Shown: positions 1-5,216, numbered from the stretch's first letter. The stretch: 64,000 nucleotides of DNA from Escherichia coli O127:H6 str. E2348/69 (GCF_000026545.1 NC_011601.1), one strand, 5' to 3'. Translations and numbers: made by a program. The notes: generated by a model not told the origin, from the letters alone.

Positions 1-2
1 CA

Positions 3-182
3 GAAGAAAAAAGAATCAAGGACGAAGAAGAGCGTAGAGCAAAGGATAAAGCTCACCGGAAAGAAGTAAATAACAAAATACTTGCTGACCTTATCAAGGT
101 TGGTGCATCAGAAGATGTTGCTAAAAATATCATAACAGCCATCGCAAAAGGCGAAGTATTCGCAACAAAAATAACCTACTAA
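3..182 (+). CDS. Hypothetical phage protein, C-terminal fragment (5' end outside window)
   Basis: Open frame from window edge to TAA at 180..182; lysine/glutamate-rich translation. Confidence 0.3.
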   Translation, partial: EEKRIKDEEERRAKDKAHRKEVNNKILADLIKVGASEDVAKNIITAIAKGEVFATKITY

Positions 183-205
183 TAAACCAACATAAGGAAC
201 CACCC

Positions 206-337
206 ATGATTTACGCAATCGCGGGAGGCGCTCGCATGGGTGCCTTCCAACTAAATGAATCTTTACTTGAACGAATCACCCGTAAATTACGTGACGGATG
301 GAAAAGAGTTGAGGTCTTATTATGCGCAATGAAATAG
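206..337 (+). CDS. Small hypothetical phage protein (43 aa)
   Basis: ATG at 206 preceded by AAGGA; overlaps next ORF. Confidence 0.3.
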   Translation: MIYAIAGGARMGAFQLNESLLERITRKLRDGWKRVEVLLCAMK

Positions 338-474
338 CCATCAATCACCAGATGCTTCGTGCTGCACAGAACAAAGCAGTAATAGCCAGATTTATTGGTG
401 ATTCAAAAATGTGGCTTGAAGCAAATAAAGCGATGAAATCAGCTATCAACCTTCCGTGGTATCGCAGGAAATGA
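322..474 (+). CDS. Small hypothetical phage protein (50 aa)
   Basis: ATG 322 overlaps the end of the previous ORF; stop overlaps the next start (ATGA at 471..474). Confidence 0.3.
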   Translation: MRNEIAINHQMLRAAQNKAVIARFIGDSKMWLEANKAMKSAINLPWYRRK

Positions 475-629
475 GTTTTACAGATAACTGGTCAGACGAA
501 GAATTCATTCGTCAGATGAAAGAATTAATCGGTAACGAAGGAGATATTCATGTCACTTGCAACCACAGTGAAGGAGAGCAAGTTACAGAGACGCATGTAC
601 ACGCAGAAAGCTCTCTGGTATCGCCATAA
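471..629 (+). CDS. Small hypothetical phage protein (52 aa)
   Basis: ATG 471 preceded by AGGAA; part of a coupled small-ORF stack. Confidence 0.3.
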   Translation: MSFTDNWSDEEFIRQMKELIGNEGDIHVTCNHSEGEQVTETHVHAESSLVSP

Positions 630-728
630 TGGTGACCGCGAAGGAATGCGGGTATGCCTTAATTTGTCCCGAGTCGAAGTATTAAATCAGCGTTATTTCC
701 TTGGGCCGTGTCCATTCTGAGGTGAATT

Positions 729-1436
729 ATGGATTTGAACAAATTCGATGAGCCATTCAGCCCTGAAGATATAGAATGGAGAATACAGCAAAGCGGTAAA
801 ACACGCGATGGCAAGGTGTGGGCTATGGTGCTGGCTTATGTCACGAACAGGGCAATCATGAAACGCCTTGACGATGTTTGCGGCAAAGCAGGATGGCGCA
901 ATGAATACCGAGATATTCCCAACAACGGAGGCGTTGAATGCGGCATATCAATCAGGATTGATTCCGAATGGGTAACCAAATGGGATGCTGCTGAAAACAC
1001 GCAGGTAGAAGCCGTAAAAGGTGGTCGTTCCGGTGCAATGAAGCGCGCTGCCGTTCAGTGGGGAATCGGTCGGTATCTGTATAACCTTGAGGAAGGTTTC
1101 GCACAAACATCTCTCGATAAAAAGCAGGGATGGCACAGGGCAAAACTCAAGGATGGAACAGGATTTTACTGGCTCCCTCCATCGCTGCCGGGATGGGCAA
1201 TCCCAGCATCAGATAACAAACCATCACCAGAAAATACCAACCAGACATCTCCATCGGTTGACTGCGAACAAATCCTGAAAGACTTCAGCGATTATGCATC
1301 AACAGAAACTGACAAGAAAAAACTCATCGAGCGTTATCAGCGTGACTGGCAATTAATGGCTGGCAACGAGGAGGCACAGGCTAAATGCGTTCAGGTAATG
1401 AACATCAGAGTTAACGAACTAAAACAGGCGGCATAA
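729..1436 (+). CDS. Rad52/Sak-like single-strand annealing protein (putative)
   Basis: 235 aa; motif AMKRAAVQWGIGRYLY resembles the Rad52 N-domain signature; sits upstream of ssb in a phage recombination module; GAGG RBS. Confidence 0.5.
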   Translation: MDLNKFDEPFSPEDIEWRIQQSGKTRDGKVWAMVLAYVTNRAIMKRLDDVCGKAGWRNEYRDIPNNGGVECGISIRIDSEWVTKWDAAENTQVEAVKGGRSGAMKRAAVQWGIGRYLYNLEEGFAQTSLDKKQGWHRAKLKDGTGFYWLPPSLPGWAIPASDNKPSPENTNQTSPSVDCEQILKDFSDYASTETDKKKLIERYQRDWQLMAGNEEAQAKCVQVMNIRVNELKQAA

Positions 1437-1904
1437 ATGTCTCACTTGGACGGAATTATTAAAAGATTCGAGTCCAGCTACAAAGTTAATGAAACAACAG
1501 GTTGCTGGGAGTCTACCTATTCAAAAAACAAAGGAGGATACACAAAATTTGTAGCCTTTGGCGTAACAATGCTTTCTCATCGGGTTGCTTTTGAGCTTTA
1601 TCACTCCCCCATTCCATCTGGGAAGATGGTTTGCCACAAATGCGATAACCAATGCTGCGTTAATCCTGAACATCTCTTTTTAGGTAGCGCGCAAGAAAAC
1701 ATGGACGACAAGATAGCAAAAGGAAGGCATCGTGGAGCCAAGAAAGGTCATGCTCATCATGGTGCAAAATTAACAGAGTGGCAGGTTATAGAAATTAGGA
1801 AAAGACTCTCTGAAAAAGAGAGTCAGTACAAGATAGCAAAAGACATGGGTGTATCTCAATCAATTATAAGCAACATAAAAACTGGCAAGAGGTGGAGCAA
1901 ATGA
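1437..1904 (+). CDS. HNH endonuclease with C-terminal HTH
   Basis: Motif [23 protein letters not shown] (HNH_3-type); start abuts the stop of the upstream gene; stop overlaps ssb start. Confidence 0.7.
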
Positions 1905-2407
1905 GTTCTCGCGGGATAAATAAGGTGATTATCCTTGGTCGGGTAGGACAAGACCCGGAAGTTCGATACTCACCATCAGGAACAGCGTTCGCTAACCTGA
2001 CAATAGCCACGTCAGAACAATGGCGAGATAAAAATACTGGCGAGCAAAAGGAATTGACTGAATGGCATCGTGTTGCTGTATCCGGGAAACTGGCTGAGGT
2101 CGTGGGGCAGTATGTGAAAAAAGGTGATCAGATTTATTTCGAGGGAATGCTGAGAACCAGAAAGTGGAAAGACCAGTCAGGGCAAGACCGTTACACAACC
2201 GAGGTTCATGTCGGAATTAATGGCGTGATGCAAATGCTTGGCGGCATTGGCGACAGCAAACAACAAGCAGCCAGCAGGCAATCACAGAAGCCACAGCAGC
2301 AATCATCACCAGCACAACACAACGAACCTCCGATGGATTTTGACGACGATATACCCTTTGCACCAGTAACTCTCCCCTTCCCTCGTCACGCTATTCACGC
2401 AATTTAA
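1901..2407 (+). CDS. ssb: Single-stranded DNA-binding protein (prophage SSB) with 15-residue extension after DDDIPF
   Basis: N-terminus [25 protein letters not shown]-fold core, Q/P-rich linker and DFDDDIPF motif; ATG 1901 with AGGTGGAG RBS (the ORF track starts at GTG 1892). Confidence 0.85.
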
Positions 2408-2420
2408 TCAGGAGAAAATC

Positions 2421-2714
2421 ATGCCAGCGCCTCTGTATGGTGCGGATGACCCGCGCCGCTGTTCCGGCAATTCCGTATCGGAGGTGCTGGATAAATTCAG
2501 AAAAAACTACGATCGAATAATGTCTCTACCGCAGGAAACGAAAGAGGAAAAGGAATTTCGCCACTGTATATGGCTTGCAGAGAAAGAAGAACGCGAGCGA
2601 ATTTACCAGACATCAATCCGACCATTCCGCAAAGCCACATATACCCACTTCCCTGAAATTGACCCGCGCCTGCGTAATTACCGCTCACGTTATGGCGCTA
2701 TCAGTAATGACTGA
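2421..2714 (+). CDS. Hypothetical phage protein (97 aa)
   Basis: ORF with AGGAGA RBS directly after ssb. Confidence 0.45.
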
Positions 2715-2724
2715 GGAATTTACC

Positions 2725-2892
2725 ATGAGAGGACTTGCATACAATCCCGGCATTCTTCCGGCAGAAATGATTATTCGCCAACGCGTAAAGCCAATGCCAT
2801 CGAGAGAGGAATTGCTTAAGAGAAATTCTTCTCCGTCAGTGAATCAAAACAAATATCTGAATGCGATGTGGCGCAAAGGAGGCAACCAGTGA
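2725..2892 (+). CDS. Small hypothetical phage protein (55 aa)
   Basis: ATG 2725 with GAGGAA RBS; the track's longer 2575 start overlaps the previous gene. Confidence 0.35.
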
Positions 2893-3158
2893 GTGAGTCA
2901 AAATGCCAAATTAATGGCAACAAGATAGAACCGTGCGCGGCGTTGGCAAAATCTCTCGAATATGGAAATCCAACATTCAAGAGTAAAGGCATATTTATCC
3001 CGGAGCGTGTGAACATAAACACCGGCGAGTCATGCATAGATATTGCTCAAATTCACTCGGGGAAATATATCGGTCGTGGCGTTGCAATGTGCTTTTGCCC
3101 GTTCTGTGGTGAAAGTTTGAAAACGTGGGAAGCGGAGGCAGCCAGTGAGCAAAATTGA
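2890..3158 (+). CDS. Hypothetical phage protein with C-terminal CPFC motif
   Basis: GTG 2890 preceded by AGGAGG; start overlaps the upstream stop. Confidence 0.4.
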
Positions 3159-3783
3159 CCATCAGGCACTGCGTGAGGCGGCAGAGCAGGCAATGCATGA
3201 CGACTGGGGATTTGACGCGGACCTTTTCCATGAGCTGGTAACACCATCGATTGTGCTGGAACTGCTGGATGAACAGGAAAGAAACCAGCAATACATCAAA
3301 CGCCGCGACCAGGAGAACGAGGAGATTGCGCTTACGGTTGGGAAGCTGCGTGTTGAGCTTGAAGCAGCAGAGAACAACCTTATTGATAGTGAATGCCATG
3401 TTGCTGAACTGGAAGAAGCTCTACGCGATAAGCAGGCGTTACTTGAAGCCTCAGAAAAGCGCAACGCAAAATTACAAAGCGAGAATGCATACATCCGCAA
3501 CCGGTACAAAGAACTGGACCTATTAATCGGGAAAAACATTCTGGTCATGCAGGCTGCCATTATCGAATGGCAGGCAACTGGCGACGCTAAGAGCGGACTA
3601 GCATGGATTTATAACACACTGTTTGGCCCTGGCGAATTACCGGACGAATCTGAGAAAGATGCTCAGGCCTACTTTAATCGCAAATATGCACCGATTGACG
3701 AAAAGCTTATGGCGCTTCACAAGTGGTTTTGGGAACAAAGTGAAGCCGAGCGCGCCGCTGGCATTCGCATCAAAGGAGAGTGA
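3145..3783 (+). CDS. Coiled-coil phage protein (ea-region type)
   Basis: 212 aa; acidic, heptad-rich central segment; position in the ea region. Confidence 0.5.
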   Translation: MSKIDHQALREAAEQAMHDDWGFDADLFHELVTPSIVLELLDEQERNQQYIKRRDQENEEIALTVGKLRVELEAAENNLIDSECHVAELEEALRDKQALLEASEKRNAKLQSENAYIRNRYKELDLLIGKNILVMQAAIIEWQATGDAKSGLAWIYNTLFGPGELPDESEKDAQAYFNRKYAPIDEKLMALHKWFWEQSEAERAAGIRIKGE

Positions 3784-3784
3784 G

Positions 3785-3976
3785 ATGAACGGACAAATCT
3801 CAATTGTTCGACCGGGAGCATGTGACGATTGCGAGATACGAATGATTATTCGTCTGGCGAGGGGGAAAACAATAACTGCTCTCATTACTCCAGAAAATCT
3901 CGCATTAGCATTAACCGGAAAGTCAGACCTGCCAGTAGAGCTAAAGCTGCGAAATGTTGAGATTAAGGTGAAATAG
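3785..3976 (+). CDS. Small hypothetical phage protein (63 aa)
   Basis: ATG 3785 with GGAGAG RBS immediately after the upstream stop. Confidence 0.4.
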   Translation: MNGQISIVRPGACDDCEIRMIIRLARGKTITALITPENLALALTGKSDLPVELKLRNVEIKVK

Positions 3977-3978
3977 CT

Positions 3979-4374
3979 ATGACCACTATTACCAAAGAGC
4001 GACTGCTGACAATCAAGCAGTGGCGCGAAACATACGGACCGGGTAGCAACGTTGTACTGCCAGCAGAAGAAGCGGAAGAACTGGCACGAATTGCTCTGGC
4101 ATCGCTGGAAGTCGAGCCGATAGGTTTCCGTTGCAGGCGCAATGATAACCTTGGTGATTGGAGTTACGTATATCATCGAGAGCCAGATGATTTTGAGCGC
4201 AAACATTTAGTGATAGAGGGCATTTACGCCGCCCCTCCAGCGCAAGTAGTACCGAAAGAAAAACCAATGCCTAATCCTCTTAGCATGTACGCGGTTGATG
4301 CTGTTGCCGCTATTGCAGAGGTGAGAGGCTGGAACGCCTGCCGTGCCGCTATGCTTCAGGGGAAAGGAGACTGA
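3979..4374 (+). CDS. Hypothetical phage protein sharing an N-terminal module with the 4584..5216 gene
   Basis: 131 aa; MTTIT start and ELARIALASLEVEP block shared with the downstream paralogue. Confidence 0.5.
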   Translation: MTTITKERLLTIKQWRETYGPGSNVVLPAEEAEELARIALASLEVEPIGFRCRRNDNLGDWSYVYHREPDDFERKHLVIEGIYAAPPAQVVPKEKPMPNPLSMYAVDAVAAIAEVRGWNACRAAMLQGKGD

Positions 4375-4375
4375 T

Positions 4376-4573
4376 ATGGATAAAAACACCACTGCTTACT
4401 GGAATCTGTCACTTGATACCGAATGCCCAAAATGCGGTCACAATTTCGATCTGCTTTGTGACGCTGATTTCTGGGAGTTTTCTGGAGCTAAACAGGCATG
4501 TGAAGAAATAAAAGGTTACGAAACATGCTGTCCAGAATGTAACCATGAATTTAAAACAGATTTCGTGTATTGA
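4376..4573 (+). CDS. Small zinc-ribbon protein (CPKC ... CPEC)
   Basis: 65 aa; two CxxC pairs; AGGAGA RBS before ATG 4376. Confidence 0.45.
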   Translation: MDKNTTAYWNLSLDTECPKCGHNFDLLCDADFWEFSGAKQACEEIKGYETCCPECNHEFKTDFVY

Positions 4574-4583
4574 GGCATAACAA

Positions 4584-5216
4584 ATGACCACTATTACCAG
4601 AGAACAGGCACAGAAAATTATTGAAGCAGCCGATGAGGTTATTAGTGCGCTTGCCGGAACTAACGAGGATGTTCACCCTGGTAGCGATAACATGCTACGC
4701 CTGTGGGATGACCTGAATGACCGTTACGCGCCCCCTGAAGTTGTGCGTGAGCTGGCACGAATTGCACTGGCATCACTGGAAGCAGAGCCTGTAAGCCAAA
4801 CTTACAACTTGCCAGAATTAATCGAAGGGATGGAAGTTTCCATTGATGTAAGCACTTGTGATGCTGATTTAGGTAATCGCTATTTCGGTACCGTCACCGA
4901 GGCGTTAGAACTTGATACAGCCAAGAATGGTTACATCCTCCTAGTTCAGGACGCAGAGCCAAACTTCGATGTAAATGGCAACTCTCCGGTAATTCCGGGC
5001 GGTTGGATAAGCTGTAGTGAGCGAATGCCGGATAGCAAAACAGCCGTTCTTGTTGCCAGGGAGTTTGACAGGAAAGGTGACTGGCGAATGAAATGGGCGA
5101 CTTACATCCCGGGGCATCCTGACGCTAATGATGGGTGGGTAATACCTGGTGCGTCGTGGATACCATCACACTGGATGCCGCTACCAGAACCGCCGCAGGA
5201 GGTTAACCATGGCTAA
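4584..5216 (+). CDS. Phage protein with DUF551-like C-terminal domain
   Basis: 210 aa; N-terminal module paralogous to 3979..4374; C-terminal W-rich segment (WISCSERMP ... WIPSHWMPLPEPP). Confidence 0.55.
   Translation: MTTITREQAQKIIEAADEVISALAGTNEDVHPGSDNMLRLWDDLNDRYAPPEVVRELARIALASLEAEPVSQTYNLPELIEGMEVSIDVSTCDADLGNRYFGTVTEALELDTAKNGYILLVQDAEPNFDVNGNSPVIPGGWISCSERMPDSKTAVLVAREFDRKGDWRMKWATYIPGHPDANDGWVIPGASWIPSHWMPLPEPPQEVNHG

Follow-up and report, generated by a model that had tools for sequence, protein, structure and literature searches.

A probable cIII-kil-gp33 head of a lambdoid early-left operon, with a further overlapping gene, in Escherichia coli E2348/69

The gene chains cIII-kil-gam-bet-exo of phage lambda and c3-kil-arf-erf of P22 are close described counterparts of the locus considered here, and the first two products have been dissected in some detail. 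Kobiler et al. found that a 24-residue amphipathic region of lambda CIII (residues 14-37) is both essential and sufficient for activity, and an alanine mutant of R32 is dominant negative (PMC1838920). Kil has a helix-turn-helix core with a Gly-Asp turn, and Naha et al. showed that the FIGD sequence at this turn is indispensable; a C-terminal RSK or RSSK motif has been reported in most Kil homologues (PMC11762379). That Kil blocks FtsZ assembly in a ZipA-dependent manner is established for the lambda protein; besides it, only HK629 Kil has been shown to disrupt FtsZ rings in this way. The gene that follows kil is gam in lambda and arf in P22 and, since the same chain exists in both phages, this slot is in each case that of a recombination or anti-RecBCD accessory gene. 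Arf is described as stimulating Erf-dependent recombination (Poteete et al. 1991). A 2026 preprint has now reported that Gp33 of phage HK75, expressed alone from pBAD, triggers the toxicity of the anti-phage nuclease P2 OLD as strongly as the whole HK75 recombination locus, and that Gam and T7 gp5.9 are likewise OLD triggers when expressed; its authors raise the hypothesis that Gp33 represents a new inhibitor or manipulator of RecBCD (bioRxiv 10.64898/2026.07.10.737580). Here, we describe a related locus at the left edge of a 64,000-nucleotide stretch of DNA from E. coli O127:H6 str. E2348/69 (GCF_000026545.1, NC_011601.1), which is referred to as the window.

Positions 1-1500 of the window match the E. 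coli E2348/69 (EPEC O127:H6) chromosome with 100% identity, and resembling DNA is present in 2,198 of the 5,426 complete E. coli genomes, with the stack of small overlapping reading frames at 206-629 conserved in about 2,200 of them. Over most of its length this part of the window shares 98.6% identity with Shigella phage Sf6 and 95.8% with phage HK75. In the E2348/69 record the antitermination gene N lies upstream of the window start and all genes from N onward are co-oriented with the stack, which is therefore a segment of the N-antiterminated pL early-left operon of a Sf6/HK75-like lambdoid prophage. The feature is real, and we consider it very likely to be of a known kind, namely the cIII-kil-gp33 head of a lambdoid early-left operon. 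As such it is the familiar cIII-kil region of lambdoid prophages, as opposed to a new cluster for host takeover. The recombination module lies 3' of the stack, comprising ORF4 (discussed below), a Rad52-type annealing protein, SSB and Abc2; the gene marking the module start, for a Rad52/Rad22-type single-strand annealing protein, is found at 729..1436 on the plus strand (Pfam PF04098, 91.4 bits, in agreement with the RefSeq annotation; omega 0.05). Scanning for promoters and terminators gave no signal above chance inside the region, where there were fewer sites than in shuffled sequences, and an Rfam scan of 1-2500 placed no family in the region, its one sub-threshold chance match falling outside. 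None of the four small proteins matched any family in an NCBIfam search.

The surroundings of the stack also yielded some observations of their own. Window 1-182 is part of a 322-aa coiled-coil protein, a homologue of Sf6 gp33, which is named either 'coiled-coil domain-containing protein' or 'cell envelope biogenesis protein TolA' in RefSeq. Unlike HK75 and Sf6, E2348/69 has an HNH endonuclease gene (window 1437-1904) that separates ssb from the gene of the annealing protein. For Sf6, HK75 and the majority of E. coli matches, the similarity ends at window 1439 with ssb directly next, and for this reason the HNH gene looks like a homing-endonuclease-type insertion; only about 140 of 2,214 matching records span the junction. 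The prophage SSB itself (window 1901-2407) carries 15 extra residues beyond the canonical C-terminal DDDIPF tip, which is the partner-binding end of E. coli SSB.

The list of open reading frames contains 206..337 (ATG, 43 aa), 322..474 (ATG, 50 aa) and 456..629 (GTG, 57 aa), and an internal ATG at 471 in the last of these gives the 52-aa frame 471..629. The coordinates 206..337, 322..474 and 471..629 given in the earlier note are thus exact, and the chaining by overlapping stop and start codons that it described is also found, as overlaps of 16 nt between cIII and kil and 4 nt between kil and ORF3 (ATGA, the TGA at 472-474 sharing bases with the ATG at 471-473) that are conserved across relatives. 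Its proposal that each frame has a plausible ribosome-binding site applies to cIII and kil, but does not extend to ORF3. Read directly, the Shine-Dalgarno sequences on the plus strand are AAGGA for cIII (194..198) and GAGG for kil (311..314, inside the 3' end of cIII), each 7 nt before its ATG. The only such sequence ahead of ORF3 is AGGA at 466-469, 1 nt from the ATG, and given this poor spacing it is more likely that ORF3 translation depends on coupling to kil. The ATGA at 471..474 (plus strand), formed by the kil stop and the ORF3 start, is a likely termination-reinitiation coupling site, at which ORF3 would probably be translated by reinitiation. The junction is retained in 8 of 8 variant contexts, even those whose upstream gene is not kil. 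It is also retained in a metagenomic contig (L098) that served as our divergent comparison and carries the chain CIII, Kil, ORF3-like, ORF4-like, Rad52, SSB and Abc2, although the SD-like AGGAA is lost there. ORF size alone is within chance expectation: window 1-5000 contains 38 ORFs of 43 aa or longer, and Markov-1 random sequence 36.9 +/- 4.6. A chain of three overlapping ORFs turns up in about 6% of random sequences of 5 kb. It is for their homology, conservation and purifying selection, and not for their geometry, that we accept the genes as real.

Judged by its sequence, ORF1 (206..337, plus strand; 43 aa) is CIII, the FtsH-inhibitory lysogeny factor. It matches Pfam PF02061 (Lambda_CIII) with 56.0 bits (E 4e-15, gathering cut-off 25.7) and the PHROG CIII family phrog_550 with an E of 1.6e-20, and its RefSeq label (WP_000638547.1) is 'protease FtsH-inhibitory lysogeny factor CIII'. 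Aligned with lambda CIII, 24 of 35 residues are identical, and in the 14-37 region of the lambda protein this rises to 18 of 24, including the identical segment ESLLERITRKLRDGWKR and R32, which is R34 in the window. The N-terminal YAIAG..G motif is also common to ORF1 and lambda CIII (HK022/Sf6 class), as is the place of the gene in the pL operon, directly upstream of kil and overlapping it. The two differ in length (43 aa in the window and 54 aa in lambda), in the C-terminal tail, which reads EVLLCAMK in the window and is unrelated to that of lambda, and in the overlap between cIII and kil, which is 16 nt here compared with 32 nt in lambda. The activity of CIII is known from the literature on orthologues, and by analogy the amphipathic helix of the window protein would inhibit the FtsH protease competitively once the N-antiterminated pL transcript is translated after infection or induction, which would stabilise CII and favour lysogeny.

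The same kinds of comparison identify ORF2 (322..474, plus strand; 50 aa) as Kil, an inhibitor of host cell division acting on the FtsZ ring. The protein, which RefSeq names kil (WP_001243355.1), scores 72.6 bits against Pfam PF06301 (Lambda_Kil; cut-off 27.6) with the full profile (1-31) covered, and matches phrog_2055 with an E of 1.2e-35. In the helix-turn-helix core 17 of 30 residues (57%) are identical to lambda Kil and the FIGD turn is conserved, with G26-D27 of the window protein aligned with G19-D20 of lambda. The C-terminus (...SAINLPWYRRK) is basic, with YRRK in place of the exact RSK or RSSK motif, and there are 7 additional N-terminal residues compared with the lambda protein. As for lambda Kil and the HK97/Sf6-type Kil, the gene lies directly 3' of cIII. 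Its helix-turn-helix peptide would, if it acts as its studied orthologues do, block FtsZ-ring assembly in a ZipA-dependent manner and so cause a transient stop of host division.

These assignments bear upon the view that the three small early genes of the stack are uncharacterised, were not recognised before, and serve new functions in host takeover or superinfection exclusion. The genes are indeed small, overlapping and early. However, two of the three are CIII and Kil, which refutes this view for ORF1 and ORF2, and the third is identical to an annotated Sf6 gene and orthologous to an HK75 gene that has been studied. Nothing in the stack resembles an exclusion protein, and in these phages the sieB-type genes are located elsewhere in the operon, so that we regard this explanation as extremely improbable. 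The earlier note had correctly recognised phage early genes, which lie in the pL operon downstream of N, and had anticipated functions in host manipulation, a kind to which inhibitors of FtsH and of the FtsZ ring belong. Nothing points towards the superinfection exclusion it also mentioned, and its statement that none of the three resembles a recognised protein no longer stands given that ORF1 and ORF2 are assigned to CIII and Kil by Pfam and RefSeq and ORF3 corresponds to Sf6 gp30 and HK75 Gp33.

ORF3 (471..629, plus strand) encodes an acidic protein of 52 aa with a net charge of -9, the counterpart of Sf6 gp30, HK97/HK022 gp42.1 and HK75 Gp33. It matches phrog_2123 over its entire length (1-52 of 52, E 6.6e-42), is 100% identical to Sf6 gp30 and shares 88-98% identity with genes found in HK022, HK97-like, mEp and Stx phages. 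HK75_33 begins at the kil stop and is identical to ORF3 at 48 of 52 residues (92%), and the forward primer used for gp33 in the preprint carries ATGAGTTTTACAGATAACTGGTC, which is window 471-493 exactly. Taken together, the level of identity, the same start at the kil stop and the matching primers identify ORF3 as an orthologue of the tested HK75 gp33. Importantly, the reverse primer ends at the HK022-type stop and the clone spans gp33 from start to stop, and in doing so also contains the Shine-Dalgarno sequence, the ATG and about 30 of the 56 codons of the overlapping ORF4. The OLD phenotype is therefore not cleanly assigned to the ORF3 peptide and, with part of ORF4 in the clone, needs separating between the gp33 and ORF4 products. 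In the PHROG database both phrog_2123 and phrog_1723, the family of ORF4, are labelled 'recombinase', a label that has spread into RefSeq phage annotations (NC_005344 and NC_016160); we found no basis for it in sequence, fold or literature.

The stack had been described as one of three ORFs and, whilst all three are real, a fourth overlapping gene was missed. ORF4 (550..720, plus strand) encodes a basic protein of 56 aa, predicted to form a two-helix hairpin, that corresponds to Sf6 gp29 and HK97/HK022 gp42 (phrog_1723, E 9.4e-36). It lies in the +1 frame relative to ORF3, which it overlaps by 80 nt, and its Shine-Dalgarno sequence AAGGAG (538..543, plus strand) is found inside ORF3, 6 nt before the ATG, and is conserved in L098. 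Selection on this frame is evident in two comparisons. Across 51 haplotypes, codon changes in the non-overlapped part are 21 synonymous to 16 nonsynonymous when read in frame, as against 6:33 and 2:37 in the two other frames. In the comparison with L098 the pN/pS is 0.27 overall (p=8e-6), with 0.21 (p=2e-4) for the unique part alone and 0.34 (p=0.006) where the frames overlap. ORF4 is thus a real gene, and is constrained more strongly than ORF3. PGAP/RefSeq leaves 471-720 unannotated in E2348/69, omitting both ORF3 and ORF4, so this gap holds two conserved, selected genes; the ORF4 orthologue is also unannotated in the HK75 record used in the OLD preprint. The AlphaFold2 model of ORF4 is a confident two-helix hairpin (pLDDT 92). 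A fold search with it gave no significant match, the best being generic helical hairpins with E 0.3 to 1.1, and PDB sequence searches with ORF3 and ORF4 gave no match. The two products contrast in charge, ORF4 being basic (net +6) and ORF3 acidic.

The pair travels together through different neighbourhoods. Both ORF3 and ORF4 are intact in 88 of 88 loci with this type of ORF3. Next after the pair comes a Rad52-type annealing protein in 58 of these loci and an Erf-type protein in 30, and before it lies kil in 64 and a different, CIII-like gene in about 23. At several loci (L091 1034-1204; L094-L096 834-1004) the gene before ORF3 encodes 56 aa with a CIII-like start (MQQFAIAGAASVRP...) and has the same ATGA junction, and the phages with this gene, about a quarter of the loci, appear to be without kil there. 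Many database entries are fusions of 81-82 aa that join the N-terminus of ORF3 to the C-terminus of ORF4 at varied junctions (P0007, P0014, P0017, P0023, P0030, P0046 and P0049), one of which, P0030, is present on 36 NCBI contigs. These fusions are probably indels or sequencing errors, and their existence shows that joining both frames is tolerated. A programmed frameshift from ORF3 into ORF4, which they might bring to mind, is unlikely given that the junctions vary as they do with indels, that ORF4 has its own perfect Shine-Dalgarno sequence and ATG, and that a +1 shift would be needed. A diverged ORF4-like frame in Salmonella phage 103203_sal5, seen by eye, was dropped when BLASTP gave no alignment.

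The constraint on ORF3 itself needs careful interpretation. A set of 80 IMG/VR loci was uninformative in this respect, having been chosen by identity in ORF3's own frame, and was replaced by L098. Measured against this contig, pN/pS is 0.37 for cIII (p=0.005) and 0.27 for kil (p=3e-9). For ORF3 the two halves behave differently: codons 1-26 give 0.29 (p=0.014), with off-frame omega values of 1.5 and 3.0, from one divergent pair with 13 differences, whereas codons 27-52 give 2.33 in the ORF3 frame and the same nucleotides 0.34 in the ORF4 frame. Absence of coding constraint, which the earlier note had raised as the point on which the genes might fail, is hence seen for the second half of ORF3, whilst CIII, Kil and the first half of ORF3 are constrained. 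The AlphaFold2 model of ORF3 predicts, at low confidence (pLDDT 62), a helix at residues 9-20 only, with the rest disordered, and the N-terminal helix segment is amphipathic, its hydrophobic moment ranking among the top 3% when compared with shuffles. This N-terminus is found with three different tails, all of them open. Its first 16-18 residues reappear with other acidic tails in a 35-aa form, upstream of RecT in HK140, SEN22, mEpX1 and Louie, and in Salmonella phages as a 60-aa form. At the DNA level the first 48 nt hardly vary in any flanking context, breakpoints of similarity are seen at 320/321, 471 and 721, and the indels observed are all in frame. Considered together, the constraint, the predicted helix, the exchange of tails, the nearly invariant 48 nt and the in-frame indels indicate that ORF3 is translated into a peptide, that the N-terminal helix is the part of it that functions, and that the 5' end of ORF3 doubles as a mosaic boundary. 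Two homologues, P0001 and P0022, carry in-frame tandem duplications of the heptad FIRQMKE in this conserved helix.

Several of these observations could also be accommodated if the ORF3 peptide had no function of its own. The 5' end of ORF3 would then be a recombination boundary, the frame would relay ribosomes from kil to ORF4 and the annealing-protein gene, its 3' half would be held in place by ORF4, and the OLD trigger would come from an ORF4 fragment or from RNA. The contrast between the two frames in the C-terminal half is in keeping with this, as are the near identity of the first 48 nt across contexts, which would be anticipated at a mosaic boundary and need not reflect selection on the protein alone, the breakpoints at 471 and 721, the poorly spaced Shine-Dalgarno sequence, the start signals and codons of ORF4 within the gp33 clone, and a fold that is poorly predicted compared with that of ORF4. 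Such an explanation does not, however, account for the excess of synonymous over nonsynonymous change in codons 1-26, which is seen in the ORF3 frame only, nor for the HK140-type form of 35 aa, in which the N-terminus and an acidic tail are kept in a context that lacks ORF4. The indels that remain in frame also speak against it, and activity is unlikely for a two-helix hairpin of which only a truncated half is present. We therefore hold it to be quite improbable, and favour a translated peptide acting through its N-terminal helix. Only the N-terminal half of Gp33/ORF3 is under selection, and for this reason the roughly 25 N-terminal residues can be singled out for testing as the candidate active element of a possible new anti-RecBCD peptide.

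If ORF3 acts as a peptide, one possibility is that it is a diverged member of the P22 Arf family, serving as a cofactor of the annealing protein (Erf- or Rad52-type) and not directed at RecBCD. Arf occupies the same place between kil and the annealing-protein gene, is similarly small and acidic (47 aa and net -11, compared with 52 aa and net -9), and shares with ORF3 a [W/F]SDEEFI motif that gives a BLASTP E of 0.013 on 7 residues and a match to phrog_2445 with an E of 0.037 over 22 residues. In addition, one database cluster with 90% identity to ORF3 carries, from its source, the name 'accessory recombination function protein'. Profile methods do not support this relationship. ORF3 has no match to PF17585 (Arf) at E<=1, and none is seen at E<=10 among 16 family members; hhalign of ORF3 with Arf gives a probability of 11.6% over 16 columns; and an exhaustive HMMER search of 1.84 billion proteins returned 29 matches, all from ORF3's own narrow family and with no link to Arf. 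Since these tests failed we rejected ORF3 as a family member at the level of profile homology and treat Arf as a positional and compositional analogue. The ORF3/ORF4 pair is, moreover, indifferent to the type of annealing protein that comes after it. Overall, we think an Arf-family role unlikely.

That the pair is found upstream of both Rad52-type and Erf-type proteins instead favours a host target over a specific phage recombinase. When this indifference is considered alongside the OLD phenotype and the position equivalent to gam, RecBCD or another end-processing enzyme is the most likely, though unproven, target of ORF3. We infer that the acidic, amphipathic N-terminal helix (approximately residues 7-22) would bind a host factor for DNA-end processing or recombination, most likely RecBCD. 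Its action would serve the downstream recombination module (ORF4, the annealing protein, SSB and Abc2) as Gam does in lambda, and the perturbation it causes would be what the P2 OLD defence detects. Against a RecBCD target, the module already encodes Abc2, a known modifier of this enzyme. It may also be that ORF3 and ORF4 together form a previously unrecognised two-gene module that heads lambdoid recombination modules, in which an acidic peptide, constrained only in its N-terminal helix of about 25 residues, has a basic two-helix hairpin as its partner. Such a module would disable RecBCD or another end-processing enzyme of the host, or redirect it, through a mechanism unrelated to those of Gam, gp5.9 or Abc2. 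We put this forward tentatively, and consider it less likely than not. If it is true, then the published OLD-trigger phenotype may need to be re-assigned between the overlapping products.

Set against the known systems, ORF3 resembles several proteins in part. Lambda Gam occupies the same slot, kil being followed by ORF3 in the window and by gam in lambda, and T7 gp5.9 is of the same size with almost the same charge (52 aa and net -8, compared with 52 aa and net -9). A relationship with gp5.9 was rejected, as BLASTP gave no alignment with ORF3, and compared with gp5.9 and Gam the window protein is predicted to have one helix and a disordered tail. P22 Arf and ORF3 are both chained to their neighbours by overlaps, yet outside the common motif their sequences are unrelated and, unlike the window, P22 is without an overlapping gene like ORF4. 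The closest counterpart is HK75 Gp33, the allele for which OLD triggering was reported, which has the same ATGA junction with kil and the same overlapping ORF4. The Rad52-type annealing protein, SSB and Abc2 downstream are also shared between HK75/Sf6 and the window. The differences between Gp33 and ORF3 are confined to the tail, which is of the Sf6 type in the window (AESSLVSP, in a protein of 52 aa) and reads AAGVNVSPEGRS in the tested HK75 allele of 56 aa.
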